Shown here in pieces: positions 17,467-34,411 of a stretch of DNA of 47,491 nucleotides. Source of the DNA: a virus; IMG/VR virus record IMGVR_UViG_3300037722_000333, positions 1 through 47,491 of that record, one strand, 5' to 3'. Made by a program: the position numbers and the translations under genes. The notes beneath the pieces are model-generated. The model was not told where the DNA came from and made no database searches. It worked only from the letters and a program-made list of their open reading frames with translations. Each line of letters begins with the position of its first letter. Position 1 is the first letter of the stretch.

Positions 17467-17494
17467 GATTTTTCCTATTTTAACGAAAGAGACT

Positions 17495-17526: not shown

Positions 17527-17538
17527 ATCTCTCACCGG

Positions 17539-18051: not shown

Positions 18052-18113
18052 GTTCGTTTTCCTTAGTAGCTCAATTTGGGAGTTTCAGTTTGGAGGATGG
18101 CCCTGCTACGCGC

Positions 18114-19299: not shown

Positions 19300-19302
19300 A
19301 TC

Positions 19303-19395: not shown

Positions 19396-19396
19396 T

Positions 19397-19974: not shown

Positions 19975-20204
19975 GATTTATTCTCGTTATCTGTTTCTTG
20001 CTCGTTTAATTTAAATCTTATCTTTTCAAGATTTTTATAAAACATATGCATTATACCGTGTTCCATTTTTGTAAATTCTGTCGGTTTACCTATTTTCAAA
20101 CTCTCTATCAATCTATGAAACATATCATGAGCAACGCAAAGTTCTACTCGATCAAGCGTCAACATGATTTTCTCAGTTTTCGTAACTTTCGATTCGATTT
20201 TCAT
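19971..20204 (-). CDS. hypothetical protein (77 aa)
   Basis: ATGA-coupled ORF in the operon. Confidence 0.55.
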   Translation of the reverse strand: MKIESKVTKTEKIMLTLDRVELCVAHDMFHRLIESLKIGKPTEFTKMEHGIMHMFYKNLEKIRFKLNEQETDNENKS

Positions 20205-21169
20205 GCCGCAATCTCCAAATCCAGCTTAACCCAGGGTTCAATCTTACTCTCATAGTAGTCGCGATTATCCATCGCAATCAGCGTCTTAACCTGCTCTACC
20301 GTATCATATTGACAAACATCCCAGAATTGACACGGCCTGTTATATGCAAAACATCCACTACTTTGCCTGCGAAATCTCTGGCTATTGAATTGCAATTTTA
20401 TATTATAGAGATCAACCATCAAATCCTCTGCCCATGAGCGAATATCATAACTTGTGCGGTGAAAATCTAACATCCTCGATTGTGGATTAACTAAATCCAC
20501 ATATACACAGAGATACTTAAACGAGAGATTATCTACCTGCTCATTGAGAACATGCTCCAACACATACGCATACGGCAGAAGCTGCTCATCGAATGTATAC
20601 TTATACCCGGCAACAGATAAATCTTGCCTTGTCGTTTTCAAATCAACCACAACGTATTCACCTGTAAGTCGGTTGAACATAATCGCGTCGATAAACCCAT
20701 CGTAATATACCTCAATCGGCTTAACTGGCCGCAGCAATATCTGCCGTTTTGCCCGCAAATCAAATCCCTTCATCCTTATACTGAATGGAACTTCCACTGC
20801 TGGACGTAGCGAACCGTCGAGACAGCGTACTTGCGCGAGTTCGTACTCAACCAAATGACCTGATCGGCACAGCATTTTCATCGTAGCATAGCAGGCTTCC
20901 GGCGAGTAGTTGTATGCGGGATTGCTTACTAAATGTATCGGATGATGGACTAGCATTTTACCGATAGCCATATCGAGATTGCCTGATTGGAGGAATTCCT
21001 GATATCCAACATGGAGGGCTTTTCCTACTTCCGCCGGGATGCTTTCATCGCTACCGGGGTGGCGGAGAAATTTGCGAAATTCCAGTTTACGGTTGCAGCT
21101 ATGGTAGAGAGCCAGCGATGAGTGGGATAGGTGCAGTTCTGATATGTTATAGGATGTCATAATTTGCAT
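20201..21169 (-). CDS. PD-(D/E)XK nuclease, Cas4/RecB-like with probable Fe-S cluster
   Basis: Motifs GFIDAIMF, VVDLKT (D-x-K) and EQLLPYAY (QxxxY). One N-terminal Cys (YHSCNRK) plus C-terminal CFAYNRPCQFWDVC. Confidence 0.7.
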   Translation of the reverse strand: MQIMTSYNISELHLSHSSLALYHSCNRKLEFRKFLRHPGSDESIPAEVGKALHVGYQEFLQSGNLDMAIGKMLVHHPIHLVSNPAYNYSPEACYATMKMLCRSGHLVEYELAQVRCLDGSLRPAVEVPFSIRMKGFDLRAKRQILLRPVKPIEVYYDGFIDAIMFNRLTGEYVVVDLKTTRQDLSVAGYKYTFDEQLLPYAYVLEHVLNEQVDNLSFKYLCVYVDLVNPQSRMLDFHRTSYDIRSWAEDLMVDLYNIKLQFNSQRFRRQSSGCFAYNRPCQFWDVCQYDTVEQVKTLIAMDNRDYYESKIEPWVKLDLEIAA

Positions 21170-21763
21170 TTACATCCGCAAGTCAAAGCTAAAATCAGCG
21201 AGAATTTCTTTCATCTCATTCGCATCTTTCGCACGCTCGGTTACTTTCTGCTGCTTAACCTGCTTAGTCGCAATGACTCTGCCGTAGTTCTCTCGTAATC
21301 CACGTACCATGAGGCCAAAGCATTCCGGCGCCAGTATATCCCGCAAGTTAGGGTTTTCTTGTAGTTTACCTACTAGCTGTTTAATCGCATCCCCTATTAA
21401 CTCCTTATGCGTTAGCGAATTCTCCAGTACGTTGACCGCCCGTAGAATTTCGTCGATTGTCTCTTGTGGATATTCCTCAATTTGCCCCGGAAAGGTAAAT
21501 GTCTTTTCCATTAGCGATTGGCGGTTTTCATCCGTTACGTTAGCAGACGGCGTATCGCCCGTATTGACTTCCATCGCCAATAAGGTTTGTAGGGAATTGT
21601 CTAATACCGGGGCCGGTGTGCTTTCCGTTACTTTCCCCGCTGAGGGTTTATCCACTTGCTTACGCAATGCCATTAGCGGGTTTACCTTAACCGCCGGAAC
21701 TGCGAATTTCGCTTCATCAGCAATCGCAGGCTTTCCTTTATTAACCAAATCGCGTAGGTTCAT
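21170..21763 (-). CDS. hypothetical protein (197 aa)
   Basis: ATG preceded by GAGGGGA. Abuts the next gene (TAAATG). Confidence 0.6.
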   Translation of the reverse strand: MNLRDLVNKGKPAIADEAKFAVPAVKVNPLMALRKQVDKPSAGKVTESTPAPVLDNSLQTLLAMEVNTGDTPSANVTDENRQSLMEKTFTFPGQIEEYPQETIDEILRAVNVLENSLTHKELIGDAIKQLVGKLQENPNLRDILAPECFGLMVRGLRENYGRVIATKQVKQQKVTERAKDANEMKEILADFSFDLRM

Positions 21764-21782
21764 AATTTAACATCCCCTCAAT

Positions 21783-22139
21783 CTAAAGCACAAGATCATC
21801 CAGAATATCTTTCAATTCCGGATCGATAACCATTCGCTTACCGCGTTGTATCCTCACTACGGTTTCTGAGTTCGTCCCCAGTACATTGAGCAAACTCGTA
21901 TCCTTCACTTTACGTTCCTCGACGCTAACCACAATCATCTTGAAATGCTTCGGCTGCTTATTCGATACCCGTCTTGCAGTCGTTCTTAGCCGGGACAACT
22001 CAACCCGCATTGCATGAACGAATTTATCCGCATTTTCTTTTCCGCCGGGTAGTACAAATTGATAATCTTCTCCGTCCTTCGTCTTGCGGAGAAAATCTAT
22101 CAGCTTTAACTTAACCGGGGATGTGGATTTCTGTTGCAT
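21783..22139 (-). CDS. hypothetical basic protein (118 aa), apparently leaderless
   Basis: The ATG at 22139 has no SD and lies 6 nt downstream of a TTGACA-N17-TAAACT promoter. Confidence 0.55.
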   Translation of the reverse strand: MQQKSTSPVKLKLIDFLRKTKDGEDYQFVLPGGKENADKFVHAMRVELSRLRTTARRVSNKQPKHFKMIVVSVEERKVKDTSLLNVLGTNSETVVRIQRGKRMVIDPELKDILDDLVL

Positions 22140-22145
22140 CGCAGG

Positions 22146-22174
22146 AGTTTACCTTATCCAATGGCATTTGTCAA
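22146..22174 (-). promoter_or_regulatory. sigma70-type promoter (TTGACA-N17-TAAACT) for the replication-module operon
   Basis: Minus-sense read: ttttacTTGACAaatgccattggataaggTAAACTcctgcgATG. AT-rich upstream flank. Confidence 0.5.
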
Positions 22175-22192
22175 GTAAAAAATTTCATGTGA

Positions 22193-22462
22193 TTAACAAC
22201 GGCGGCTTAGATAATTCTCGTGCACGAATGCTATCACGGCATGGCGCGTATTTGCCGCATCGCTAGTTGCGCAGATTGGCAATCGCTGCAATTGCTCCAC
22301 TCGCGCAGAGAGAAGTTCGTCCGATTTCATGGCGATGATATCCTCTAATAGAGTGATTGTCATTTCACAGTGATTGCAGATTAGTGGTGGGAGTGCTTGT
22401 GCTGTGATAGCGATAGCGATACGGCCATCGCAGATAGAACAGAATATAGTGCGGGATTTCAT
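22193..22462 (-). CDS. zinc-ribbon protein (89 aa)
   Basis: CSIC...CNHC pairs. ATGA-coupled to the upstream ORF. Confidence 0.5.
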   Translation of the reverse strand: MKSRTIFCSICDGRIAIAITAQALPPLICNHCEMTITLLEDIIAMKSDELLSARVEQLQRLPICATSDAANTRHAVIAFVHENYLSRRC

Positions 22463-22680
22463 CGCTCCATTTTCCGTAAAGGTTTGAATCGTTTCCTTAT
22501 CGTTTTAAGGAATTGATAATGTCCAGTTACTTTCCCAACGTCATCGTAAACCAAATATCGCGTTTCTCTCGGTATCCAATTCTCCGGAATCATATCTGAC
22601 TCATATATTGTAGGGCGGTTATTCCGATAATATCCGCCAGTGGTAATCTTACGATAGAAATAGATTGGCAATTTTTTCAC
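22459..22680 (-). CDS. hypothetical protein (73 aa)
   Basis: GTG start in the track. Basic and Tyr-rich. Start uncertain. Confidence 0.45.
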   Translation of the reverse strand: MKKLPIYFYRKITTGGYYRNNRPTIYESDMIPENWIPRETRYLVYDDVGKVTGHYQFLKTIRKRFKPLRKMER

Positions 22681-22813
22681 TCCATTCTAAGGTATGCATA
22701 ATTATAAATGCCCCTACGATGATACAAAAAGTACTATCCCAATCTCTTATTAAATATAATCCTGCACCCGTTAATATACCAGCTAATCCTATTTGTAATA
22801 AAATTTCTATCAT
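22649..22813 (-). CDS. small membrane protein (54 aa, below the track cutoff)
   Basis: Hand translation: MIEILLQIGLAGILTGAGLYLIRDWDSTFCIIVGAFIIMHTLEWSEKIANLFLS, with two hydrophobic segments. ATGA overlap with the upstream micro-ORF. Confidence 0.4.
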   Translation of the reverse strand: MIEILLQIGLAGILTGAGLYLIRDWDSTFCIIVGAFIIMHTLEWSEKIANLFLS

Positions 22814-22893
22814 TGTAGCCAATCCCAGATAATGAGAATAAGGAATGTGAGTCCGAACGCTAGTAAAATGTCAACCACGGGAACGAGTAGCAT
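22810..22893 (-). CDS. micro-ORF encoding a 27-aa transmembrane peptide
   Basis: MLLVPVVDILLAFGLTFLILIIWDWLQ. The ATG lies 9 nt after GAGGAG. Confidence 0.35.
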   Translation of the reverse strand: MLLVPVVDILLAFGLTFLILIIWDWLQ

Positions 22894-22896
22894 GGT

Positions 22897-23181
22897 TCAA
22901 TACTCCTCATAAGATAAGGGACGTTGTCCATTAAGTATCATCTGCTCAGCTTTTTTAATCGCAGCGTTTAATTTTCTAAGATTTAATACATATATTGTCT
23001 CATCATTTGTTATTGAATAGTTATCCAAAAGGACTGTTAGAGAATAACCATTTATAGACAGTATCGATATCTTCGTATTGTCTGGATATCCAGATTTTAC
23101 ATAGCTGATTGAATATGCATCACGTTTATCTTCTTTAAAATCCTTTTTAATTAAGAAATTATGTAAACTGTGTTTATTCAT
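22897..23181 (-). CDS. hypothetical protein (94 aa), AT-rich island
   Basis: Start moved to ATG 23181, preceded by GGAGGATAAGATT. The track start (23196) is TTG. Confidence 0.55.
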   Translation of the reverse strand: MNKHSLHNFLIKKDFKEDKRDAYSISYVKSGYPDNTKISILSINGYSLTVLLDNYSITNDETIYVLNLRKLNAAIKKAEQMILNGQRPLSYEEY

Positions 23182-23244
23182 AATCTTATCCTCCAAATAC
23201 TAGCATTCGCACTAACCATGCGATGATTGTTTCTAGTAGGCTCA

Positions 23245-23463
23245 TTATTTATCTTCCCAAATTACATCAATAGTATTCTTATATTCTCCGTCTTTTGTAG
23301 TGTGGATTTTGGAAAATCTTCTAGTTGTTATATCATTATGTGTATGATACCACTCAGTTTCAAAATTTTCATTTTTGATTGCATCACAAATCAATACTTT
23401 CATATAATAATGACTATGACCAGATATTTTGATTTCTGTTTTATGTTCAGTTAGTTTATTCAT
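23245..23463 (-). CDS. hypothetical protein (72 aa), AT-rich island
   Basis: ATG preceded by AAGGAATAGGATT. No motif. Confidence 0.5.
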   Translation of the reverse strand: MNKLTEHKTEIKISGHSHYYMKVLICDAIKNENFETEWYHTHNDITTRRFSKIHTTKDGEYKNTIDVIWEDK

Positions 23464-23467
23464 AATC

Positions 23468-23668
23468 CTATTCCTTTCCAGTGCTAGACAGTTTCCCCAA
23501 ATCCTTTACCGCAATTCGCCGATAGTGTTTACCTTTCTTATTCCAGCGATAGTGTGTGTTGTGAATTTGGATGAATTCCGGGTTAGCGAGTCCGGGGATG
23601 AAACGATCTCCATCTTGCACGATGGTTCCGTCCGAATTACGTAGTTCGACACTATGTCCAGCGATCAT
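23468..23668 (-). CDS. hypothetical protein (66 aa)
   Basis: ATGA overlap with the upstream gene. Confidence 0.5.
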   Translation of the reverse strand: MIAGHSVELRNSDGTIVQDGDRFIPGLANPEFIQIHNTHYRWNKKGKHYRRIAVKDLGKLSSTGKE

Positions 23669-23988
23669 TTTAGCTTCCTTTCTTGGATAACTATTCTACG
23701 GTTATTTCCATCAGGTTTAAATTTTCCTTCAAGTATATCATTATCTTCTTGAAATATAAATCCAGCCTTTTCTAAAAAATGAATAAATTCTATTTTTACA
23801 GATGTTATACCTAATTGGTATTTTCCAGAAAATGTAATAGTTATATCTGCGTTATTGCTTAAAATTTCTATCTTTTTTAATTCTTCTCGAAATGTATTTT
23901 GAGCAACTTTTGACCAATTTATTTCTGGATGAAATTTCATCGCGTCCTGCAATTCTTTTGGAATTGATATTGTTTTTCTCTGTGTCAT
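23665..23988 (-). CDS. ribbon-helix-helix-like protein (107 aa)
   Basis: Start moved to ATG 23988, preceded by AAGGAG. The N-terminus MTQRKTISIPKELQDAMKFHPEINWSKVAQNTFREEL fits a CopG/RHH strand-helix-helix pattern. Confidence 0.45.
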   Translation of the reverse strand: MTQRKTISIPKELQDAMKFHPEINWSKVAQNTFREELKKIEILSNNADITITFSGKYQLGITSVKIEFIHFLEKAGFIFQEDNDILEGKFKPDGNNRRIVIQERKLK

Positions 23989-24028
23989 TTCGGCGCTTCT
24001 CCTTCGTTTAAATTTGAATTTTGCGATA

Positions 24029-24244
24029 TCAATGTATACTATTTGTTTCTCCAGATAAAATTTCAATATATAAGGTTTCATTGAATCTTTTACTAAGCAC
24101 ATTTAAAAAAGTTCGACATTGAATTAATGTGTTAAATTTTACTGCCTGTTGACTATCAGCAGTGAAATACAATTTATCGGGAAGTAATCCCTCAGTTACA
24201 TACTTTATTGGGTTGGTTTCACAATTACGAATTACATATATCAT
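24029..24244 (-). CDS. hypothetical protein (71 aa), AT-rich island
   Basis: ATGA overlap with the upstream HTH gene. Confidence 0.5.
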   Translation of the reverse strand: MIYVIRNCETNPIKYVTEGLLPDKLYFTADSQQAVKFNTLIQCRTFLNVLSKRFNETLYIEILSGETNSIH

Positions 24245-24666
24245 GGCCTATCTCCTTCTTTCACGAGATTTATCTCAACGTTGTACCCAACGCATCTGCA
24301 TATGTCTAAATATGTATACCAGTTAAAATTTTTCGTTTCATCCAATATGCCTCTAATCGTTCCGGGATTATGCCCTGTACATTCTGACAGATATGCGATT
24401 GATATTTCCTTTTCTATCAGCGTCTCCAGAAGCACTCTCGTAAATTGCCGTTTTGCATTTTTCAGCTTATTCTTTAAATTCTCCAATGATTTATTTTTTA
24501 TTGAATCACTCAAATTATTCTTCGCTCTGCAAAGTGGGCTGCAAATCATTGGTTCTCTTGCCATACGCAAACGTTCTTCCGTAAATGGTCCGCCGCAGAT
24601 TATACATCTTATTTTCCGTTTCCTTCTATCTTCTATACGTGCGATAATCATATCTTGAGTTGTCAT
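24241..24666 (-). CDS. Zn-ribbon + XRE-like helix-turn-helix protein (141 aa)
   Basis: CIICGG...CSPLC at the N-terminus. The C-terminal ISIAYLSECTGHNPGTIRGILDE...YLDICRCVGYNVEINL resembles an XRE HTH. RBS is GGAGAG. Confidence 0.55.
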   Translation of the reverse strand: MTTQDMIIARIEDRRKRKIRCIICGGPFTEERLRMAREPMICSPLCRAKNNLSDSIKNKSLENLKNKLKNAKRQFTRVLLETLIEKEISIAYLSECTGHNPGTIRGILDETKNFNWYTYLDICRCVGYNVEINLVKEGDRP

Positions 24667-24668
24667 GG

Positions 24669-25214
24669 CTACTCTCCAATCAAGTCAGCTATCTCAATGA
24701 ATACGTCCGCAGTTTTTCGCAATTCTTCTGACATGATTGGCGGGGTTATCTTGATGCTGGACATTACCGCTACTCGGATATTGCGGTTTTGCGCATATTT
24801 GACAAGTGGGGTAAAATCGCCATCGCCAGTTGCGAGGATTATTGTATCTATGCCATGTTGGCATGTTTCGATGAAATCCAATGCGATCTCGATATCCATA
24901 TTTCCTTTTTTGCTAATGCTTCCATCTTTTTGAGTGAAAGTTTTTCCATTTTTAGTCACTACATTATATCCATGATAGCTGAGAAAGTCCAACAACGGAC
25001 GTAAACGGTCAACGCCATTTTCATCAGTTATCACAGCGGTGTAGTAGTTAATCTTGCGAAGATTGCAAGCTGCGGATAACGTTAGCTGGAATTCCTCAAA
25101 ATCGAATTTTCGCCCAATTGCATTTACCGCAGTGTAGAAATTGCTCCCATCGATGAAAACCGCTACTCGTTCATCGTGGCGGAAATCGATTGTGCTCAAG
25201 TTTATCATAATCAT
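24669..25214 (-). CDS. NYN-domain (LabA-like) nuclease
   Basis: VAVFIDGSNFY ... NMDIEIALD ... ILATGDGDFTPLV ... IRVAVM reproduces the NYN/LabA pattern with the acidic residues intact. Its ATG overlaps the helicase stop (ATGA). Confidence 0.75.
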   Translation of the reverse strand: MIMINLSTIDFRHDERVAVFIDGSNFYTAVNAIGRKFDFEEFQLTLSAACNLRKINYYTAVITDENGVDRLRPLLDFLSYHGYNVVTKNGKTFTQKDGSISKKGNMDIEIALDFIETCQHGIDTIILATGDGDFTPLVKYAQNRNIRVAVMSSIKITPPIMSEELRKTADVFIEIADLIGE

Positions 25215-27142
25215 TTACTCGCTATCAGTTTGGGTTCCGGGAAATTCGGTTTCGGCTCATCCGGGTCAATATCAAACTGCGTATATGTTTTAATCTTATC
25301 CGCAATCGTCTTGCCCTTTATCTCTTGCCGCTGTATCGCTTTCTGCAATCCGCGATCATTCGCCAGTATGACAACGCGAAATTTAGCGCGAGTTGCCGCT
25401 GTGTACAGCCATTCACGGGTTAGCATTCTCGCATTAGCTGAGTGACATACGATTACAACGGTGCGGGCTTCACTACCTTGCATCTTGTGGCAAGTCATTG
25501 CATATGCATGGCAGAGTGTGCGATATTGGCCTGCTGTTGAGAATGTTACTTCGAGGTCTTCCGTCCCGTTATTGAATACGGCAGTTACTACGTGGGAAGA
25601 TGCGCGTTGGTTAATGTCGCCATCGTCTTCCAGCACAGTAACGTGCAGATCATCGGCCAAATTCGTGAGATCGAGTGAAAATCCGCTATCGAGTTTGACC
25701 GCATCATGCGTACCGATACCTTTGTTCCCATCATATTCGCCATTTAGGGAGATATCAACAATACGGCCCATCATGCCGTTGGAAAGTGAGCGTTTGCGGT
25801 CATTCTGAAGTAACATAATCTTATCATCGACTGCATAAGTAACTTGCGTTAATCCTGTGGTGATAACGATACGGCGATTGGTTTTATCAGGTTTCTCGGG
25901 ATTAAAGAAACGAACCAATTCTTCATTGATATTCAGCTGCCCGAGGACTTCTTTATTCTGCGGCACAATCAATGCGTCTTGAAATGGATCAAATGTGCCA
26001 TTCTTACTCATATATTTAATAACGTTAATCACTTTATCATATGCGGACAGACTTCCGTCCGGTAATTTCATAATGACGAATTTTTCCTTATCTTGAGTTG
26101 GGTAAAAACCTTGCAAGATATTGTGCGCTTGTTCTGCAATTACGCCCGCATTGCGATGCAATTTCTCCAGCGCATACACTGGCCACTTTATCATTGCATA
26201 ACCTAGCGCAGATTTGCCCATGATTGGCGTGAGTTGGTTGATATCGCCGATAATGATAATACGGCAATCGTCCGGCAATGCGGCTAGCAGTTCATTCGTT
26301 AGCGGAATATTCATCATTCCGCCTTCGTCTAGTACGCATATCTTGAAAGGTAGCTTATTCTCAACGGTGAAGGATGGCCGGAATATTCGTCTCTCGCGCC
26401 ACTCTTGCGTATCTTCATCGAGGAAATCTTCCATTACCGGAGCGTATCCGAGAGTGGCATGTACGGTGTTTGCCATTGGATGAAATTGCGGCGGTAGGTT
26501 GAGCTTCATTTGCTGGACTGCGCGCCCTGTGAATGCGCAGAAGCATATTGCTACGTTATATTGTTCTGGCGCCTTCTCATCTATCGCAGATGCGAGTTTC
26601 GTTGTATTCAGATTGATCGTTGGTAGCGTATTCTCTAACTGGCGCACTAGCTGTTTAATCGTTGTTGTCTTGCCCGTACCAGCAGCACCGATCAGCACAC
26701 CGTATTTCTGCTGCGAAAGTCCGGCTAATGCGGCAAGTTGGAATTCGTCCAATTGCACATCGCTTGGCGCCGGCGCTAGTCGCAAAACCGGCGGTTCATC
26801 GATTTCATCGTTTATGTTTTTTATTATCTGCTGAATTTCAGAACCATTGATTAAATCATTGGATTGACTATTTTCGTTAATTTCGAAATTTTCACTGGTT
26901 GTATTGCGCGCGGCTTCCGTTGCATTCGCTGCCTGTGGTTCCTTCGATTTTTTAATTAACTGCATTAGCGACATTGTCTTCAGCGCCGCCATGTCTTGCT
27001 TTTCAACAGCGCGGTTTGCCTGCTCTGCAATTCGCTTGGTTATACCCGTACCATAGAGGATATCATCCTTGCGAGTGGCGATAACGGATTTCGCCGCAGT
27101 CTCGGAAGGCGTGGATTTCTTTATCAGAAGGGGATTGCGCAT
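25211..27142 (-). CDS. RecD/Dda-like SF1B DNA helicase
   Basis: Walker A GAAGTGKTT, motif II VLDEGGMM, motif III IIIGDINQLTPI, C-terminal AMTCHKMQGSEARTVVIV. About 130 aa of low-complexity N-terminus. Confidence 0.85.
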   Translation of the reverse strand: MRNPLLIKKSTPSETAAKSVIATRKDDILYGTGITKRIAEQANRAVEKQDMAALKTMSLMQLIKKSKEPQAANATEAARNTTSENFEINENSQSNDLINGSEIQQIIKNINDEIDEPPVLRLAPAPSDVQLDEFQLAALAGLSQQKYGVLIGAAGTGKTTTIKQLVRQLENTLPTINLNTTKLASAIDEKAPEQYNVAICFCAFTGRAVQQMKLNLPPQFHPMANTVHATLGYAPVMEDFLDEDTQEWRERRIFRPSFTVENKLPFKICVLDEGGMMNIPLTNELLAALPDDCRIIIIGDINQLTPIMGKSALGYAMIKWPVYALEKLHRNAGVIAEQAHNILQGFYPTQDKEKFVIMKLPDGSLSAYDKVINVIKYMSKNGTFDPFQDALIVPQNKEVLGQLNINEELVRFFNPEKPDKTNRRIVITTGLTQVTYAVDDKIMLLQNDRKRSLSNGMMGRIVDISLNGEYDGNKGIGTHDAVKLDSGFSLDLTNLADDLHVTVLEDDGDINQRASSHVVTAVFNNGTEDLEVTFSTAGQYRTLCHAYAMTCHKMQGSEARTVVIVCHSANARMLTREWLYTAATRAKFRVVILANDRGLQKAIQRQEIKGKTIADKIKTYTQFDIDPDEPKPNFPEPKLIASK

Positions 27143-27148
27143 GGTGAG

Positions 27149-27439
27149 TTACTCTCGATTAATGTTGGCTATATATGGTTTGCAAATACGCATTGCCCAA
27201 TTTTCGCCTTCGTCAGCTTGATCGATAATACGTAATGCATCTTCTAACGTATAATCATTCAAAAGTTTTGGCAATATTTTAATTAAATCGGTGCGATAGC
27301 AAAATCCGTCATACCAGAAATTAGCCTGTTCAGCGAGTTCTTCTTTTGTATAGTCCTCCATTTGACTATATCGAATAAATCGTTTTTGCTCCATTTCGAT
27401 TTTTGAATTGTCGATGAAAATCGTTTTGTAAATTTTCAT
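27149..27439 (-). CDS. hypothetical protein (96 aa)
   Basis: ATG preceded by GAGGAGTGAAAGAAA. Confidence 0.6.
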   Translation of the reverse strand: MKIYKTIFIDNSKIEMEQKRFIRYSQMEDYTKEELAEQANFWYDGFCYRTDLIKILPKLLNDYTLEDALRIIDQADEGENWAMRICKPYIANINRE

Positions 27440-27445
27440 TTTCTT

Positions 27446-27721
27446 TCACTCCTCTATCAACGCTGTTTGAATTGCATTTAACCCAAATTCGATATTTGAT
27501 ACGTCTAAATCATTGTCAATCATTTGCTGTATAACTGCATAGCTGATTGCATGATAATTTATCATATTGGGTTCCCAAGGGATGATATAGAATGATATTT
27601 CTTCATTATATTTAGATAACGCGATAATATTTTTTGTGATTGAGCGAGTTAATATAACATCATTGAATGTTTTATTTATTTTTCTTTCAGCGAATGAGAG
27701 AGTGTTATCTTGAGTTTTCAT
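27446..27721 (-). CDS. hypothetical protein (91 aa)
   Basis: ATG preceded by AGGACATCAATT. Confidence 0.55.
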   Translation of the reverse strand: MKTQDNTLSFAERKINKTFNDVILTRSITKNIIALSKYNEEISFYIIPWEPNMINYHAISYAVIQQMIDNDLDVSNIEFGLNAIQTALIEE

Positions 27722-27731
27722 AATTGATGTC

Positions 27732-28700
27732 CTAATCGGTCAGTTTACGGAAAAGCTGCAATCCCGATTTTGGCGTTATCACATTCTGCTTAATCGGCTT
27801 TTCCAGCACTGGCGAAGTACGTTTCATTTGTCCATGTCCATATCGGCTTTCACGATAACCAACGGTTGCAGCTTTTATCTTCGCGTCTTTTGCTTCCTTA
27901 TTCAATATTTCGCCAATCTGCAAAGAGAAAATCTCATGATCTAAGAAACCACGAAATTTTGCCTGTTGACGAAAATTGCTATATCCGCCGAATTTAGCTT
28001 GTAATTTATGTCCATCAGACGCATTCGTATATGGATTAGCTATTCGATGCTTTACGCAATATTCGCCAATGCGTCGCAGGTTTGCGATTAGATCAGCTCT
28101 GATTATACTGGTTGTAAGTTTCTCAACTGAGGTTTTGCTGAATTTCACCAATTCTCCTACCTTGCCAGTATGTACGATAGAGAGATAGCGAGTAGCGAAT
28201 TCATTGATTTCGTGAATTTCCGCGATAGGAATTTCTGCGGTCTCAATCTGTTTCCGCAAACACACAACGAATTGAAATCTTGCAAACTTTATCTCTTTCT
28301 CGAACTTTGGATTATGCTGGGTATAGGTTTCTTTCATGTATACCCTATTATATACACGAGAGATAGCATAGATAAAATAACCAATCGGGTCAATCAATTT
28401 CAACTTTTCCAACGCCTTTGCATCAGTGTGTAGCCATAACGGATGTGTGTATTGCATAGCCGACACTATCAAAAGCTCTTGTGCTCGTTTACTTCCATGA
28501 ATATGCAAGAGCCCCCGATATTCTTCCGTGCTGATACTGGCCAGATATTTCCCAGTTTTATTGCAATATATCTTACAGCTATCGAAATCTATCTCTTCCG
28601 CGAATTCAATATGCGAAAGTATCGCCGTTATCTTCTCATTCAATTCGCTGATATTGAAATTAACCAATTTATCAACTGTCGTTGCCGTAGGCATATGCAT
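27732..28700 (-). CDS. hypothetical protein (about 320 aa), first gene of the leftward block; weak primase-polymerase-like motifs
   Basis: EEIDFDS (DxD) followed 26 aa later by RGLLHIHGS (sGxGxH-like) and then LHTD. The start may be the second ATG (28694), which is better spaced from GGGGGA. Confidence 0.6.
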   Translation of the reverse strand: MHMPTATTVDKLVNFNISELNEKITAILSHIEFAEEIDFDSCKIYCNKTGKYLASISTEEYRGLLHIHGSKRAQELLIVSAMQYTHPLWLHTDAKALEKLKLIDPIGYFIYAISRVYNRVYMKETYTQHNPKFEKEIKFARFQFVVCLRKQIETAEIPIAEIHEINEFATRYLSIVHTGKVGELVKFSKTSVEKLTTSIIRADLIANLRRIGEYCVKHRIANPYTNASDGHKLQAKFGGYSNFRQQAKFRGFLDHEIFSLQIGEILNKEAKDAKIKAATVGYRESRYGHGQMKRTSPVLEKPIKQNVITPKSGLQLFRKLTD

Positions 28701-28737
28701 AATTCCCCCACGTGCCCAATTCTACCACCGAAGATGC

Positions 28738-28766
28738 ATTCTCTCACACTTCTGCCAATTTGTCAA
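28738..28766 (-). promoter_or_regulatory. candidate leftward early promoter (TTGACA-N17-GAGAAT)
   Basis: Minus-sense read, with a perfect -35 and a 4/6 -10. Bracketed by the 7-bp inverted repeat CTCTCAC (28741-47) / GTGAGAG (28781-87). Confidence 0.4.
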
Positions 28767-28823
28767 CAGGAAAATTCAAAGTGAGAGATATTTTTTCCTG
28801 TTGTTACTAACATGAAACATTTC

Positions 28824-28859
28824 ATAACAAGTTTCCTAACAAGTTTCATAACAAGTTTC
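28824..28859. repeat. three exact tandem 12-bp repeats N-TAACAAGTTTC
   Basis: TAACAAGTTTC occurs at 28825-35, 28837-47 and 28849-59. A degenerate fourth unit (GAAACATTTC) and an inverted TTGTTA lie just upstream (28801-28823). Confidence 0.9.
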
Positions 28860-29009
28860 ACGCATTTTGGGCGGGAGCGGTGCGTTGGTGGCATTTTACT
28901 TACTTGCAGCTAGTATGATTTATGTTAGTAGCTATTCACTAACCAATGAGAGTTATCTACATAAGGGGTATGTTTAAAAAATATCTGTTTATCTATATCC
29001 CATACTCGT

Positions 29010-29018
29010 ATTATAGCA
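29010..29018 (-). promoter_or_regulatory. candidate extended -10 promoter (TGcTATAAT), leftward
   Basis: The minus-sense sequence gcTGcTATAATacg has a perfect -10 with a TG extension. The -35 is poor. Confidence 0.3.
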
Positions 29019-29181
29019 GCTAGCATCATCGGGAACTAATCCGCTACTAACTAATCCATATCAGCTCACAAGTAACTAAACAGCCCTTGAGGGGGTGCGA
29101 CGGGTCGGAATGACGTGTAATTTGTTAGGTTAGGCGTTATGAAATATATCATGTTATTTTCATCGATTGCGAACTCCGGGC

Positions 29182-29210
29182 TTGACATATGCGGCGCTTT
29201 TCCATATAAT
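29182..29210 (+). promoter_or_regulatory. perfect consensus sigma70 promoter TTGACA-N17-TATAAT
   Basis: TTGACA at 29182-87, an exactly 17-nt spacer, TATAAT at 29205-10. Lies 64 nt upstream of ATG 29274. Confidence 0.7.
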
Positions 29211-29273
29211 AGGTCTACCAAAGCGGGATTGCCCCGCAGCGGAAAAAATCGAACCCCTAGGAGAAAACCGAAA

Positions 29274-30086
29274 ATGACCAACACAGCAGAAGTTGAGACG
29301 ACTGACGAAGCGCAAACCGAGAATGCGCCCTTCGCAGAAATGAAGCAGGTAGATCGCTGCTATTTCCCGCCTTCGGAAGTTGCAGGAGCCGGACAGACCT
29401 ACCTCAATCGCATTGCGGCAATTCCCGGCATCATGGGAACGGAAGAAAAGGGCTATAAGGATAGCCTGCTAAAGACAAACTACGATGTCGAGAGTTTCGA
29501 TTTCGGCGAACACCCCACATACGGCTTAGCCGTGATCCCTGTCGGTGTCCGCTTGGAAGGTGAGAACAAAGGAACCGAAATTAAATCCATCGTCATCGCC
29601 GCAATTCCCGATCCCGCTAGCGTTCTCGCCGATTCGGCTGGGCGCGAATTCGTTCTCGACAATATCTCTACCGCGTTCATGACTAAACTTGCGAATGCGG
29701 TCCGCCCAAAAGACGGTATTCAGCCCAAGCTTCCGTTCACACTCACGGAATTCATCACCATCACACGTGGTCGTGAGAGCCTCAAAAGCTACGCTGAACT
29801 TGCACCGTCCATGGTTACTTCGCTCAAGGAACGCGGCCTCAAGCATATCACTGTTCCCATCTTGCGGCAGTGTTTGCGCTCGCAGGCCGAAGCTAACATG
29901 CGTTTCGGCGATGCCGTTACTGCCCCCGCTTGGGAAAATGTCATCAAGGCATTTATCTCTGGCGCAGAACGCAAGGGTCTCGATTCGGCTATCTTCCATC
30001 GCTGGTTGGAAACTCGCGAACAGGCCGTTGACGAAATCGAAATCGATGGCGACTTCTCCGATCTGGATTTTAACCCGGCAGAATAA
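29274..30086 (+). CDS. acidic orphan early protein (270 aa)
   Basis: ATG 29274 lies behind AGGAGA and downstream of a perfect sigma70 promoter. The track's longer start (29139) would include the promoter. Acidic N- and C-termini (..EIEIDGDFSDLDFNPAE). Confidence 0.7.
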   Translation: MTNTAEVETTDEAQTENAPFAEMKQVDRCYFPPSEVAGAGQTYLNRIAAIPGIMGTEEKGYKDSLLKTNYDVESFDFGEHPTYGLAVIPVGVRLEGENKGTEIKSIVIAAIPDPASVLADSAGREFVLDNISTAFMTKLANAVRPKDGIQPKLPFTLTEFITITRGRESLKSYAELAPSMVTSLKERGLKHITVPILRQCLRSQAEANMRFGDAVTAPAWENVIKAFISGAERKGLDSAIFHRWLETREQAVDEIEIDGDFSDLDFNPAE

Positions 30087-30121
30087 CTCGTCAACCTACG
30101 CTATCGCAAACTAACCTACCA

Positions 30122-30164
30122 ATGCCCTGGCGAGTTTAACCACTTTCCGGGGCATTTTCTTTTC
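30122..30164 (+). terminator. intrinsic terminator after the 270-aa early gene
   Basis: ATGCCCTGG / CCGGGGCAT 9-bp stem (one G.U), 16-nt loop, then TTTCTTTTC. Confidence 0.55.
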
Positions 30165-30193
30165 ATCCTCTGTAATTTCACTCATTTTCTTAT

Positions 30194-30222
30194 TTGACAA
30201 TCATTGTAGTTTTTGCTATTAT
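30194..30222 (+). promoter_or_regulatory. sigma70 promoter TTGACA-N17-TATTAT
   Basis: TTGACA at 30194-99, 17-nt spacer, TATTAT at 30217-22. Directly after the terminator and 38 nt before ATG 30260. Confidence 0.6.
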
Positions 30223-30259
30223 CTTAATCTCGTTATTAATCAACTTGTGAGATACAACT

Positions 30260-30520
30260 ATGCTAAACGTTCGCTACAAAGGCAAAATCGGATTAGCCGA
30301 ATACGCTAATCGTAAGCCCTTCATTCGCGGCTTCACCGACGCGCGCAAACACTTACCACTCGGCACGTTAATCCGCGATGTAACTGCGGCAGTCGACTAT
30401 GAACGCGGCAGACTATTCGCCGCTTGCTACTCTGGCCCGTTGCGAGACGACAATTTCAAACTCTCGAAATCTGCGCAGCAGGCATGGAATGCTGCTGTTC
30501 AATCTCACGCAATCATCTAA
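30260..30520 (+). CDS. hypothetical early protein (86 aa)
   Basis: First ORF after the promoter at 30194. Confidence 0.55.
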   Translation: MLNVRYKGKIGLAEYANRKPFIRGFTDARKHLPLGTLIRDVTAAVDYERGRLFAACYSGPLRDDNFKLSKSAQQAWNAAVQSHAII

Positions 30521-30545
30521 TCTCAATCCACCAGGAGTAAACACA

Positions 30546-30806
30546 ATGTACATCTGGAATTACAACGGTATTCAAGTTTTCGATATTATCACAGTACACG
30601 CCTCAACCAACTCTGTCATCCTGCACGGTATAGGCATGGCATACAATCGCCATTTCGCATGGCAAGCACAAGCACAACAACATGGCTGGCAGATTATCAT
30701 AATCTCAGCTACCAACAAACGTATGCAAATTGACGGCTCAACATTCAATCTCGGGCTTGAAGTCTACGCCGCAGCTAAACGATTTCTCGGACTCAATCCG
30801 GAGTAA
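30546..30806 (+). CDS. hypothetical early protein (86 aa)
   Basis: ATG 30546 lies behind GGAGTAAACACA. The track start (30399) overlaps the previous gene. Confidence 0.55.
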   Translation: MYIWNYNGIQVFDIITVHASTNSVILHGIGMAYNRHFAWQAQAQQHGWQIIIISATNKRMQIDGSTFNLGLEVYAAAKRFLGLNPE

Positions 30807-30811
30807 ACACA

Positions 30812-31033
30812 ATGCACTCTACCAACCTGCGACATACGCAACGCATAAGCTACTGGTTTCAATTTTTCACGGAAATCAGTAATCATGATTATGATTATGC
30901 GATACAGAAGGCTGTACGAAATGCAATATGGATAAAAGCTGTCCGTACTCGCCCAATCAACGAAACGCTCCGAGAACGAAATACACGAATTGTCACTGCA
31001 ATCGAAAACGCTGAAAAGGACATGAAAGAATGA
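30812..31033 (+). CDS. hypothetical early protein (73 aa)
   Basis: ATG lies behind the identical GGAGTAAACACA initiation region. Confidence 0.55.
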   Translation: MHSTNLRHTQRISYWFQFFTEISNHDYDYAIQKAVRNAIWIKAVRTRPINETLRERNTRIVTAIENAEKDMKE

Positions 31034-31143
31034 TCCCAATCGATCCCGATGATCCCAAGATAAACCTACTGGACGCACTCGCTATCCTGCTAGGCGTTGC
31101 ATTCGGAGCCTTCATCCTTCTCGCTATCATCTTCGCAATCTAA
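31030..31143 (+). CDS. micro-ORF encoding a 37-aa transmembrane peptide
   Basis: ATGA overlap with the upstream stop. Product MIPIDPDDPKINLLDALAILLGVAFGAFILLAIIFAI. Confidence 0.4.
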   Translation: MIPIDPDDPKINLLDALAILLGVAFGAFILLAIIFAI

Positions 31144-31161
31144 CCCGCAGAGGAAATCGCT

Positions 31162-31362
31162 ATGCAACATCCATTTACCAAAATCATTCCCAACCTACAC
31201 TACATATTCACAAGATCACCAGACCCTAACTCTATCGATTACCATATCCACTACGCTATCGGCGCTGCACGTTTCTACGCTGCACTAAATAATCGTCAAG
31301 GCATGGCGAAAGCAATTCAATGCGAACTGAATGCATTAGCTGATCTGCGCTCTCACAAGTAA
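31162..31362 (+). CDS. hypothetical early protein (66 aa)
   Basis: ATG preceded by AGAGGAAATCGCT. Confidence 0.5.
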   Translation: MQHPFTKIIPNLHYIFTRSPDPNSIDYHIHYAIGAARFYAALNNRQGMAKAIQCELNALADLRSHK

Positions 31363-31394
31363 CCATCTATCAACCACAAACCGGAGAAACCACT

Positions 31395-31568
31395 ATGTAC
31401 AATCTCGCCGAAAAAATCGAAGCTCAGATCTTCGTCGACACATCTTTATTCGTTTTCAGCACTCACCTATCCACGCAGCAGAAAATCGCAGTACTAAACT
31501 ATCTGCGCTGTATAAAAACTACATGCAGGCTTCTGGAAGATGTAGTTAATCGCAAGTCTACTGAGTAA
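31395..31568 (+). CDS. hypothetical early protein (57 aa, below the track cutoff)
   Basis: Hand translation: MYNLAEKIEAQIFVDTSLFVFSTHLSTQQKIAVLNYLRCIKTTCRLLEDVVNRKSTE. ATG preceded by GGAGAAACCACT. Confidence 0.4.
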   Translation: MYNLAEKIEAQIFVDTSLFVFSTHLSTQQKIAVLNYLRCIKTTCRLLEDVVNRKSTE

Positions 31569-31624
31569 GTATGGCGTATGCGAAAGTATTCAGGCTGCGC
31601 GTAATAAATCACTCGCACTAACTC

Positions 31625-31660
31625 AATCCCGCAGTTTGGCAGATTGCTAGCTGCGGGATT
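31625..31660 (+). promoter_or_regulatory. perfect 10-bp stem-loop closing the small-gene operon
   Basis: AATCCCGCAG (31625-34) / CTGCGGGATT (31651-60) with a 16-nt loop. No U-tract on either strand. Confidence 0.4.
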
Positions 31661-31689
31661 AGCTTATGCGGTGTTCACGAAATTGTGAA

Positions 31690-31718
31690 TTGACAGCGGA
31701 ATGCAAGTGTGGTAGTGT
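31690..31718 (+). promoter_or_regulatory. candidate promoter TTGACA-N17-TAGTGT (TG at the extended -10 position)
   Basis: Perfect -35 and a weak -10 preceded by TGG. Overlapped by TAGTG(T/A)GT repeats at 31713, 31724 and 31732. Confidence 0.4.
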
Positions 31719-31762
31719 GTTGATAGTGAGTTAGTGAGTTAACCAGCTAGGGAGTTAAGCAA

Positions 31763-32047
31763 ATGAGTTTCTTTGGTGGCGATCATACGAAATCACACTA
31801 CAGTGTGCAGCTTCTCTATAACGCATTTAAAGGCGAAACTACAGTGCAACGTCGCGACCGTCGTTGTGTAGAGTGGGCAACGATAAATTTATATGATCCT
31901 AACTTTCGTAAAACCAAGTACTGGCAATTTACGAATGGTGATTTAAAGGCTAAGCGATATGCACAAAAACGGGCAGAACAATACGCGAGAGACATTACCG
32001 ATAATACAGGCGTCATCGTGGAAGTTGTTGAGGGCAGCTTTCTTTAA
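31763..32047 (+). CDS. basic orphan protein (94 aa) in its own promoter-terminator unit
   Basis: ATG preceded by GGGAGTTAAGCAA. Followed by a strong terminator. K/R-rich. Confidence 0.6.
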   Translation: MSFFGGDHTKSHYSVQLLYNAFKGETTVQRRDRRCVEWATINLYDPNFRKTKYWQFTNGDLKAKRYAQKRAEQYARDITDNTGVIVEVVEGSFL

Positions 32048-32068
32048 TCCGATAGCAGCTAACCACGA

Positions 32069-32097
32069 GGGGGGGTAATGCCCCCCATTTTTTATTT
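32069..32097 (+). terminator. strong intrinsic terminator
   Basis: GGGGGGG-TAATG-CCCCCC followed by ATTTTTTATTT. Confidence 0.8.
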
Positions 32098-32273
32098 GGG
32101 GCCACCTGGGTATAAATACTTGCTCACCGACACTGCCACAAAAATCCAAAAAATTGTTGATTGCTAATTTAAATTAATTCGTTGATAATGGTTGGGAGAT
32201 AAAGAAAAAATAAAATTTTAAAAATAAATAAATGAAGTAAATGGAAGATGTAAAAATAACATGAAGATAACGA

Positions 32274-32302
32274 TTGCAGATGTATTAGATTAGATGTATA
32301 AT
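32274..32302 (+). promoter_or_regulatory. candidate late-operon promoter TTGCAG-N17-TATAAT
   Basis: Perfect -10 and a 4/6 -35, preceded by about 150 bp of A-tract-rich DNA. Overlapped by the AGATGTAT direct repeat (32278-85, 32292-99). Confidence 0.45.
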
Positions 32303-32350
32303 GCGGGTTAGTTAATGAGGAGGTGGGTTAAGCTGGGTGGTTGGAAGTTA

Positions 32351-32364
32351 GGAAACTTGTTAGG
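32351..32364 (+). promoter_or_regulatory. single copy of the 12-bp motif (GGAAACTTGTTAGG) overlapping the terS RBS region
   Basis: Its reverse complement CCTAACAAGTTTCC matches 28835-28848 in 13/14 positions. It ends 10 nt before ATG 32375. Confidence 0.8.
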
Positions 32365-32374
32365 AACATAAGTT

Positions 32375-32962
32375 ATGAGTAACCAGGACATCGCAGACGC
32401 CAAGATTGAGAAGATCGTTAAGCTGATCAATTATGGCGCAACCAATGCGGAGATAGCACAAGCTACCGGTTTGGAAGAAGCGGAGATTGTGCAAGTGCGG
32501 GCGATGCCGGCTTTCATTGCGAAGCTGGCAGATTCTGCATATGAGGAATTCGACAATTTCACTACTATGAACGATGCTTGGGACAAGTTGGAACAGATGT
32601 CCCTGGTTAATGTACTGCAAGTTGTGGAGTATAATAAGGATCCGGATTTCAACCTCAAAGTGGCGATGTTGGCTAATAAAGCTCAGCGGCGCGGATTGAA
32701 AACTAATAAGCCGATACAAGCTACTGCGCCGACGCGGACAGTTATAGTTATGAATCAACAGTTTGTGGAACTTCTGCAAGCTGATGGGAGAAATCGTGCG
32801 GTGATAACCGGGGAGTCTACTTCGGTAATTGAGCAGATTGAAAATAACGTAAAATCGCAAGATTTCCTTAACCCGGAGAAAGTTGAGCGTATGCTGCATC
32901 CGGAAAATCATATGCGGAATGCGATCGCCGGGATTGAAATCAATGGATCTCTGGATGAATAA
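32375..32962 (+). CDS. terS: terminase small subunit
   Basis: 195 aa, directly upstream of terL. N-terminal HTH-like LINYGATNAEIAQATGLEEAEIVQV. First gene of the late operon. Confidence 0.6.
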   Translation: MSNQDIADAKIEKIVKLINYGATNAEIAQATGLEEAEIVQVRAMPAFIAKLADSAYEEFDNFTTMNDAWDKLEQMSLVNVLQVVEYNKDPDFNLKVAMLANKAQRRGLKTNKPIQATAPTRTVIVMNQQFVELLQADGRNRAVITGESTSVIEQIENNVKSQDFLNPEKVERMLHPENHMRNAIAGIEINGSLDE

Positions 32963-32965
32963 CCA

Positions 32966-34411
32966 ATGGCGTTAGCTCAAGTACAAGTCAATACCGGTGA
33001 TTTGAAACATGCGTTAAAAACGCATGCGGAATTTTTTATCCAATTCCATTTGGGCGAATTGCTGACTCTCGCAATTCCGATTTTTCATCCGGCGGTATTC
33101 GCCAAGATGATCGCGATGGAAATTTCCCGCTTTGTTTGTGCCATACCACGAGGACATGCTAAGACCACACTAGCGAAACTCGCATGTGTATGGTATTTTT
33201 GGTTTACCGATTATCGATTTATTGTTTATGTTAGTAACACTGCCAGCACTGCGCAGTTGGCGGCGTTGGATATTATTAATTTCCTGGAGAGTGAGAATTC
33301 ACAGTCTATATTTCCGATAATTGAATGGGAGATACGGCGGCCGGGTGATGGATTGTATGTATTCCATATAGGAAATAAGAAATGCATTCTGCGCGCATTG
33401 GGAGCTGGGCAGCAGATACGTGGTATCAATATCGATAATCAACGTCCGCAGTTAGCAATTGTGGATGATTTGGAAGATAATGACAATATCGCTACGAAGG
33501 AATTACTAGATAAGTTGATAGGTTGGTTTTATGGACCGTTTGAGAAATGTCTCGATTTGATACATAATAAAATTATCCATATCGGGAATATGATATCCAA
33601 TCAATGTCTACTTAAGAAACATTGTGAAGACCCAGATTGGCATTCTATTCGATTTGGTTGTTTATTGTCAGATGGTACACCATTGTGGCCTGATATTTGG
33701 CCTGTTATAGAACTACAGAAGGATTTCCAACGCTACGTACGTATGAATAAGGTTGATAGCTGGTTTGCGGAAATGATGAATTTGCCAATGGCCAGCAGTT
33801 CGGGATTGATACGCGCAAGTGAAATCTACTATCGGCCGCAGATATATCCTGGCAATCATGATGCTGCATTTATAACGATTGATCCGGCAATCAGTGAAAG
33901 ATCTTGGGCGCATAAATCGGTAGTTGCTTGCTCAGCTAGATTTGATGGTGTATGGCAAGCGGTGGATTATGAGTTATTATCCGCAGTTGATCCGATTATG
34001 TTATTTGAGTCAGCGTACAAAATGGCTATTAAATGGCGATGTCGTCATATCGGTATCGAGTCAATGGCTTATCAAGCATCGATTGAGCCGGTGTTTAAGT
34101 TTCTTTCGGAAATGCGAGGGATCAAATTTTTGGAATTTCATAAGCTCATGAGTTATAAACAGAAGACTGAACGGATATTGACGTTCGCTGGTATGTTAAA
34201 GATTAAGGAATTCGCACTGAACGATGGTGAGTATCCTATCACAGTCCAGTTATTGGAGTACAATCCTAGTAAGCGTGATAATGATGACGATATCATCGAT
34301 GCGTATGGTTATGCTCCTGAGATGATAGCACAAGGTAAAGTACAGTTGATAACGAAAGCTAAAGCAGTTGCAAGTTTGATTAAAACCTCTTATGAAACGT
34401 GTGATATCTGA
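32966..34411 (+). CDS. terL: terminase large subunit
   Basis: 481 aa. Walker A-like AIPRGHAKTT, Walker B LAIVDDLED. Nuclease-type acidic motifs AFITIDPA and IIDAYGYA. Confidence 0.85.
   Translation: MALAQVQVNTGDLKHALKTHAEFFIQFHLGELLTLAIPIFHPAVFAKMIAMEISRFVCAIPRGHAKTTLAKLACVWYFWFTDYRFIVYVSNTASTAQLAALDIINFLESENSQSIFPIIEWEIRRPGDGLYVFHIGNKKCILRALGAGQQIRGINIDNQRPQLAIVDDLEDNDNIATKELLDKLIGWFYGPFEKCLDLIHNKIIHIGNMISNQCLLKKHCEDPDWHSIRFGCLLSDGTPLWPDIWPVIELQKDFQRYVRMNKVDSWFAEMMNLPMASSSGLIRASEIYYRPQIYPGNHDAAFITIDPAISERSWAHKSVVACSARFDGVWQAVDYELLSAVDPIMLFESAYKMAIKWRCRHIGIESMAYQASIEPVFKFLSEMRGIKFLEFHKLMSYKQKTERILTFAGMLKIKEFALNDGEYPITVQLLEYNPSKRDNDDDIIDAYGYAPEMIAQGKVQLITKAKAVASLIKTSYETCDI

Follow-up and report, generated by a model that had tools for sequence, protein, structure and literature searches.

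The analyzed stretch of DNA (the window) is a whole phage contig of 47,491 bp, in which a 573-bp divergent intergenic region (28701-29273) holds a short repeat array. The structural genes lie on the plus strand from 32375 to the end of the contig and continue over 1-10740. A leftward replication block (10835-28700) encodes a primase/DUF3987 protein, PolA, a PD-(D/E)XK nuclease, an NYN-domain protein and a RecD/Dda-like helicase, and a few rightward ORFans occupy 29274-32047. The intergenic region and its flanking genes contain the following features; the promoters P_L and P_R, like the late promoter described below, are consensus predictions throughout.

27732-28700, minus strand: A1, a conserved basic ORFan of 322 aa (pI 9.4), first gene of the leftward block
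28738-28766, minus strand: predicted early-left promoter P_L (TTGACA-17-TGnGAGAAT), which would drive A1 and the replication block
28801-28824: degenerate promoter-proximal units, the palindrome TGTTA-C-TAACA and then TGAAACATTTCA
28808-28848: left arm of a long inverted repeat, imperfect over 41 nt (78% complementarity with 29116-29156), the two arms lying 267 nt apart
28825-28860: three 12-bp tandem units, TAACAAGTTTC(C/A), from sequence, word search and repeat finding
28946-28986, plus strand: central conserved box ATGAGAGTTATCTACATAAGGGGTATGTTTAAAAAATATC, consisting of TATA, a G/C run and then an A/T tract
29116-29162: right arm, with TTGTTAGG (29122-29129), GTTAGG, CGTTATGAAAT (29135-29145) and CATGTTATTTTCA (29150-29162)
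29182-29210, plus strand: predicted early-right promoter P_R (TTGACA-17-TATAAT, 12/12 in the consensus scan)
29274-30086, plus strand: A2, a conserved acidic protein of 270 aa (pI 4.8), first rightward gene, with an acidic DFSDL tail

The three tandem units read, in order, TAACAAGTTTCC (28825-28836), TAACAAGTTTCA (28837-28848) and TAACAAGTTTCA (28849-28860); read towards P_L, the units correspond to TGAAACTTGTTA. A preliminary description of this DNA had reported a triple TAACAAGTTTC at 28825, 28837 and 28849 with an exact 12-bp period, preceded by a degenerate unit and a TTGTTA half. Direct reading and TRF (period 12, 3.4 copies, score 75) bore out the triple, and both preceding elements are present: TGAAACATTTCA (28813-28824) agrees at 8 of 12 positions and directly precedes the three exact units, and TTGTTA (28801-28806) together with the following C-TAACA forms the palindrome TGTTA-C-TAACA. 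The 11-mer ATTTCATAACA at 28819-28829 is identical in the window and four relatives. A 43-aa ORF that crosses the array on the minus strand (28763-28894) was rejected as a gene, as it is not conserved in the relatives.

A word search of the window for GAAACTTGTTA with at most one mismatch revealed 7 matches where 0.82 were expected, a count attained in none of 100 shuffles; the array is beyond chance. Four of the matches are exact and belong to the array and to the copy at the terminase gene terS. The three matches with one mismatch (13332, 35391 and 43118) are isolated and lie in coding DNA, as expected by chance. The genome-wide search proposed in the preliminary description limited exact copies to the array and terS. 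An exact two-unit scan of IMG/VR matched only coding repeats of an unrelated AT-rich virus. In two IMG/VR contigs (L003, 3340-3460; L004, 6895-6935), exact tandem copies of GAAACTTGTTA encode KKLV/KKPL peptide repeats, and their resemblance to the array is a coincidence.

The array forms one half of a larger structure. A motif-blind search gave the inverted repeat formed by the left and right arms a score of 15, compared with a shuffle maximum of 12. The right arm has the sequence TTGTTAGGTTAGGCGTTATGAAATATATCATGTTATTTTCA and ends 20 bp short of the P_R -35, and a second inverted pair (28890-28906 and 29069-29085) is nested inside the arms. The preliminary description had missed the right arm at 29116-29156, as well as the central box and the units that precede the late -35. 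In P_L, the consensus scan placed the -35 (TTGACA) at 28766-28761 and the -10 (GAGAAT) at 28743-28738. The array is located approximately 94-129 nt upstream of the predicted P_L start site and therefore would not be part of the leftward leader. Thus, of the earlier placement in the leader or upstream region of the leftward block, the upstream position stood and the leader position did not. The consensus scan predicted no inward-reading or rightward promoter before the array, and no central sigma70 promoter was predicted between the arms.

Two further features were seen near the early promoters. A perfect 11-nt inverted repeat (CAACAGGAAAA, 18 bases, TTTTCCTGTTG; 28764-28774 and 28793-28803) overlaps the P_L -35, possibly as an operator in its own right. 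Further to the right, a strong promoter-like site with rightward orientation (30194-30222, TTGACA-17-TGnTATTAT, 11/12), the second of this kind, is found upstream of the ORF at 30260, and no TAACA/TGTTA units were noted there.

No other non-coding element of the family is as conserved as the central box. Most relatives have a single copy in the divergent intergenic region (L005 6722-6760, L006 7533-7570, L010 1400-1440 and L011 5918-5955). The box consists of an oriented TATA, a 4-7-bp run of G or C, a few bases and AAAAT(T)T, and an A/T tract (AAAAATTT and its flanks) lies 3' of it. L007, L038, L042, L044 and L062 have C in this run and some other lineages G, with the flanks constant in orientation. 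The box is not a sigma70 -10 because position 6 lacks a T; possible roles are an origin core and an unusual promoter. For the TATA-GGGG box to be a phage promoter, a phage RNA polymerase would be needed; none was found in the 814-aa or 1894-aa proteins, the latter searched with Pfam and against PDB sequences. A search of Rfam over 28600-32500 gave one match, to RAGATH-32, which was sub-threshold.

The second set of units lies approximately 3 kb to the right, at the start of the late operon.

32070-32095: conserved terminator, GGGGGGTAATGCCCCCC followed by a T run
32257-32273, plus strand: two units, TAACA (32257-32261) and TAACG (32268-32272), 11 bp apart and abutting the late -35
32274-32302, plus strand: candidate late promoter with a weak -35 (TTGCAG, 32274-32279, 3/6), a 17-bp spacer and TATAAT (32297-32302)
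32347-32377, plus strand: terS leader units, namely GTTAGG, GAAACTTGTTAGG (19/20 to the array) and GTTATG, which contains the start codon
32375-32962, plus strand: putative small terminase gene terS, assigned by its position upstream of TerL (32966-34411)

Besides GTTAGG and GTTATG, the leader contains the TTGTTAGG that is also present in the right arm. The preliminary description had pointed to a reverse-complement copy of the array motif at terS that overlaps the AGGAA ribosome-binding site upstream of ATG 32375, and both statements agree with the sequence. The copy is exact over 32352-32362, and the match is longer than had been noted: 28833-28852 (TTCCTAACAAGTTTCATAAC) and the reverse complement of 32347-32366 are identical at 19 of 20 positions. 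In particular, GGAAACTTGTTAGG at 32351-32364 overlaps AGGAA (32362-32366) and ends 10 nt before the ATG. Directly after the terminator, at 32100-32123, we also observed a conserved element composed of GGGGCC, 5-6 bases and GTATAAATAC, approximately 150-200 bp upstream of the late promoter; it recurs in L005 (~9170-9195), L006 (~9243-9265), L007 (9240-9262) and L011 (8600-8625).

The comparison covered 21 uncultured relatives with TerL proteins 40-62% identical to that of the window phage: seven initial genomes (L005-L012; 49-62%) and 14 non-redundant genomes from a metagenome scan, with approximately 10-21 kb examined in each. A protein database contained many metagenomic TerL relatives, on contigs of 44-50 kb. 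No close isolate relative was found in the isolate-phage collection, and megablast and tblastn searches of isolate phages with the locus, A1 and A2 gave no match; TerL identity is ~27-29% to EBPR podovirus 3, Polaromonas phage Tiera and the Pseudomonas 119X/PaMx41 group, the last two being the nearest isolates (~27-30%). Pattern scans of IMG/VR for A1, A2 and TerL gave no match, and a helicase scan of IMG/VR returned two distant or cut loci only (L001 and L002), which were uninformative. Host labels from the genome-collection scans are MAG bins only, one relative being binned with a Gammaproteobacteria MAG. The relatives share one order of the locus: a leftward A1-family gene, a divergent intergenic region of 0.5-1.3 kb, a rightward A2-family gene and a few small genes, followed by the conserved terminator, the late promoter, terS and TerL.

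Conservation of the sites in related phages, a check proposed in the preliminary description, was found at the level of layout, as nearly all of the 21 relatives have two arms in the same intergenic region. Among the first seven relatives, TAACA/TTTCA units occupy the left half of this region, with the reverse complements in its right half (TAACA-type/TGTTA-type units, 30/14 on the left and 5/21 on the right; Fisher p=1.5e-4). The motif-blind search found a long-range inverted repeat that beat all 20 shuffles in 17 of the 22 genomes, and in 21 of 22 the pentamer density of the intergenic region exceeds that of the remaining locus (Wilcoxon p ~1e-6); since these genomes share descent, such statistics describe conservation and not independent trials. 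The pair ATTTCATAACA (left) and TGTTATGAAAT (right) is inverted over 227-316 bp in the window, L005, L006, L007 and L010, and within the sequence examined these exact 11-mers are confined to the intergenic region. In L011, the two copies of a perfect inverted pair of 17 nt, ATTGTTAGGTTAGTTTT, are separated by 287 bp.

The words that fill this layout vary. Most of the 22 genomes have the TAACA/TGTTA core, and the arms consist of TAACA/TTTCA in most, of TTTCA only in L038, of ACTAACT-type words in L057 and of CTTGCAATGTCA in L066; L054 and L066 have 12-bp tandem repeats of their own, of independent origin. The unit spacing is 12 bp in the window array and 11 bp in the window late-promoter pair, the right arms of L005 and L010 and the pairs of L006 and L007. 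TAACA is on the left in 14 of the 18 genomes that contain both words, and the orientation is reversed in L050 and also in the distant phage Tiera, which has the same layout with another word (TGTTCGTTAT/ATAACGAACA) and in which no A1 or A2 homologs were found. The arms stop short of the P_R -35 by 20-30 bp in most genomes and by 100-137 bp in L006 and L007. The divergent intergenic region of Tiera (L013 5929-6072; 43928-44071 of the record) additionally contains a perfect 72-bp tandem duplication, each copy ending in ATATAACGAACA, which pairs inversely with TGTTCGTTAT 355-427 nt away.

The late-promoter sites are also shared. In L005, L006, L007 and L010, a plus-oriented unit pair, 11-12 bp apart, is positioned just upstream of the late -35, and the units abut the -35 in the window, L005, L006 and L010; five genomes combine the plus pair with a minus pair in the terS leader. 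Promoters equivalent to the candidate late promoter are present in the relatives, and the late -35 is weak (3-4/6) in most genomes, compared with 12/12 for P_R. Six of 8 genomes have TGTTAG no more than 35 nt from the terS ATG (chance ~0.01 each) and, likewise in 6 of 8, TTGTTAG is present 3-32 nt upstream of it; in several genomes this copy overlaps the ribosome-binding site and AUG. Paired pentamers are 41-fold denser in the intergenic region and the 200 bp upstream of terS than elsewhere. The 16-20-nt identity between array and terS leader is found only in the window phage, and the relatives share cores of 7-12 nt, often in the same sense.

The observed features, namely the sites, their conservation, phasing and orientation and their positions relative to the predicted promoters, suggest a phased cluster of DNA binding sites for one sequence-specific protein that would act as a transcriptional switch, the likeliest function, to which we give an even chance. 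Sites for a protein at the DNA level are indicated because the cores are short, the phasing is 11-12 bp, the arms are inverted over a long range, units lie upstream of a -35 and the words are lineage-specific. The geometry at the weak late promoter is the main support for a switch. The lineage-specific words also fit a co-evolving binder, which would therefore be encoded by the phage rather than the host, and we regard this as probable. Of the readings offered in the preliminary description, a single regulator for early-left and late expression is consequently the best-supported class, given the conserved cores, the phasing and the weak late -35, and overall it is supported in part.

In this layout, left units (TAACA..TTTCA) and right units (TGAAA..TGTTA) enclose the central box, with a predicted outward sigma70-like early promoter beyond each arm, and a smaller copy of the same design surrounds the late promoter, formed by the pair abutting the -35 and the reverse-oriented units of the terS leader. 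The protein would bind tandem units cooperatively on one face of the DNA. At the late promoter, the -35-proximal units would let it help RNA polymerase, and the leader units would provide a second contact, through looping or as a roadblock. In the early region, it would modulate or shut off P_L and P_R. Together, early modulation and late help would constitute an early-to-late switch, and the same protein could also mark an origin.

That a protein binds, which protein it is and in which direction it regulates are inferred, and several results sit uneasily with a switch. No binder was found, and A1 has no detectable DNA-binding domain. The distance from arm to P_R ranges from 20 to ~137 bp among the relatives, unlike that of an activator with a fixed position, and the early promoters are near consensus and should need no activation. 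The arm orientation is reversed in L050 and Tiera. Moreover, a purely transcriptional model does not explain the central box and A/T tract, which suit an origin.

Near the element, family-wide occurrence is limited to four proteins, namely A1, A2, the helicase and TerS. Of these, A1 is basic, whereas A2 and TerS are acidic, and A1 is therefore the candidate binder of the array. It has no match in Pfam, PHROG or PDB and no fold match; a database search with alignment returned only three other proteins, and its AF2 model (pLDDT 38) was unusable. For A2, an exhaustive search at E up to 0.001 gave 261 representative relatives. AF2 modeled A2 with confidence (pLDDT 89.6), the model has no structural neighbor in PDB or BFVD, and no function was therefore assigned; judged from this model, the fold may be new. 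The acidic tail, reminiscent of phage SSB tails, raises the idea that A2 could be SSB-like. The small early ORFs showed no family-wide conservation of the kind expected of a conserved regulator, and no winged-helix or response-regulator domain was present among the scanned phage ORFs.

Among known systems, direct-repeat operators of the OmpR/PhoB family are similar to the array. ArcA sites consist of 2-5 repeats of 10 bp with a TGTTA core, spaced 11 bp centre to centre (PMC4173790). The phage units share this core and likewise form 2-5 tandem direct repeats. Such operators space their repeats by roughly one helical turn (10-11 bp); among the phage sites, an 11-bp period is seen in the right arms of L005 and L010, TGTTATGAAAT-TGTTATGAAAT, in the window late-promoter pair and in the pairs of L006 and L007, and a 12-bp period in the window array. 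Like direct-repeat operators, which have at least two repeats with a short core, the array has three exact units and degenerate ones, and these sites are situated at predicted promoters, being upstream of, abutting or downstream of them as in ArcA regulation. In contrast to ArcA, the window array has a period of 12 bp, the arms are paired as long-range inverted arrays and the unit words change by lineage. Host ArcA is disfavored because of the 12-bp period and the lineage-specific units. A different parallel is offered by phi29, in which the phage proteins p4/p6 occupy several sites of a divergent region, repress early promoters and activate a late promoter with a poor -35. The multi-site divergent control region and the poor late -35 match the present proposal, but in phi29 the early and late promoters share one region, whereas here the late promoter is 3 kb away with its own flanking sites, and p4/p6 have no homology to proteins of this phage.

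A replication origin, with the arms as iterons for a phage initiator (A1 or the DUF3987 primase-helicase) that flank an unwinding core and load replication bidirectionally, is a serious rival that we consider less likely than the switch. The arrays are symmetric about the conserved core, and an A/T-rich tract lies 3' of the box. The G/C run occurs on either strand while the TATA and AAAATTT flanks are fixed, which points to a duplex-level feature. The element heads the replication module (RecD-like helicase, NYN, PD-(D/E)XK, PolA and primase) beside the basic ORFan, and iteron-type origins are likewise next to replication genes. Opposed arrays of initiator sites around an A/T-containing core, sometimes between divergent promoters, are known from oriC (DnaA boxes), SV40 (T-antigen pentamers) and HSV oriS. 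The P4 ori/crr comprises two distant site sets, the second kilobases away, as are the terS sites here, which would then be a secondary or regulatory set.

Other features do not fit as well. The phage units (5-12 bp) are shorter than classical iterons of 17-22 bp, A1 resembles no known initiator in Pfam, PHROG or PDB, and homology to known initiators and a conserved DnaA box are lacking. The DnaA-box-like TTATCTACA (8/9) at 28953 sits in the central box, but it is not conserved as such, its CACA end differing in the relatives. The cumulative GC-skew minima fall between the intergenic region and terS, vary among genomes and are not consistently at the intergenic region, and GC skew was set aside as an uninformative marker of an origin. 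The rightward early genes (29001-32000) have a negative skew like the leftward block although they are on the plus strand, and the skew is positive only from the late operon, ~32.0 kb. Finally, the units that most relatives have at the late -35 and in the terS leader are not predicted by an origin alone. The iteron origin raised in the preliminary description thus gains from the symmetric arrays and loses on DnaA boxes and initiator homology, and it is partly compatible with a regulator, because an initiator could double as a transcription factor.

Precedents for one protein that initiates replication and regulates early and late promoters are T antigen and DnaA. By analogy with SV40 T antigen, one fast-evolving A1 might combine origin recognition with the early/late switch, binding two opposed iteron arms around an origin core and the miniature copy at the late promoter; we regard this as doubtful. 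If true, a large family of uncultured environmental podoviruses would couple replication to the expression of packaging genes.

It is improbable that the units are an RNA operator, UUGUUA(U/G)GAAA, bound at the terS start by a RegA-like translational repressor, with the arrays as RNA sites or decoys. The overlap of the terS copy with the ribosome-binding site and AUG in several genomes would suit such a repressor, and both arms would have the sense of the terS leader if transcribed outward from the center. The terS copy also resembles the SELEX consensus of T4 RegA operators, aaAAUUGUUAUGUAA (PMC3014915), and the T4 RegA UUGUUAUG at the start codon resembles the terS-proximal units. However, the predicted transcripts do not include most of the phage units: each array precedes its predicted outward promoter, the scan for sigma70 promoters placed none in the center, and the late RNA cannot contain the units that precede the late -35. 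The 11-12-bp phasing and long-range inverted arms are features of DNA sites, and no RegA homolog was found by Pfam in 30 scanned ORFs (E up to 0.01 or 0.001), a set that left out a few ORFs of <80 aa. Two positions weaken the earlier suggestion of an RNA element shared by both leaders: that of the array, upstream of the predicted P_L, and that of the units before the late -35, which cannot be part of the RNA.

We consider a pac- or cosB-like recognition site, in which TerS would bind units around its own promoter and 5' end as well as the intergenic arms, very improbable. Units are indeed immediately at terS, and repeated TerS sites at the terS 5' region are known from lambda cosB and SPP1 pacL/pacR. 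Against this, the early control region, 3.5 kb away from terS, holds the largest arrays, the contigs of the relatives break at unrelated positions and so indicate no terminus at the arrays, and the Tiera record begins at terS and not in the intergenic region.

An antisense RNA from the array that pairs with the terS initiation region, or a neutral slippage repeat, is hardly credible: the 19/20 complementarity in the window phage speaks for pairing, but no promoter reading rightward into the array was predicted, Rfam gave no match, the long complementarity is absent in seven relatives, in which only the 7-12-nt cores are common, and a neutral repeat is ruled out because the architecture is conserved across 22 genomes. 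The proposal of RNA seeds against terS in the preliminary description is weakened because no rightward promoter was predicted and the 16-20-nt complementarity is phage-specific.

The array is most likely an ordinary kind of element in an unstudied phage family and not a new type of mechanism. The comparison defines a conserved control locus for a widespread family of uncultured podoviruses, with hundreds of TerL relatives in metagenomes, that is made up of a pair of opposed arrays with short phased sites, a strongly conserved central box and corresponding sites around the late promoter. This signature can be used for annotating family genomes, and it supplies candidate cis elements, with A1 as the candidate trans factor, for an early-to-late switch, an origin or both.

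Two other proteins of the window were noted. The 1894-aa structural-module protein (5056-10740) matches only PHROGs of unknown function, with one match to the C-terminal part of a family of 3431 positions. Within 24669-27142, the NYN-domain protein is encoded directly downstream of the RecD/Dda-like helicase, and this pairing is kept in L005, L006, L007 and L011.
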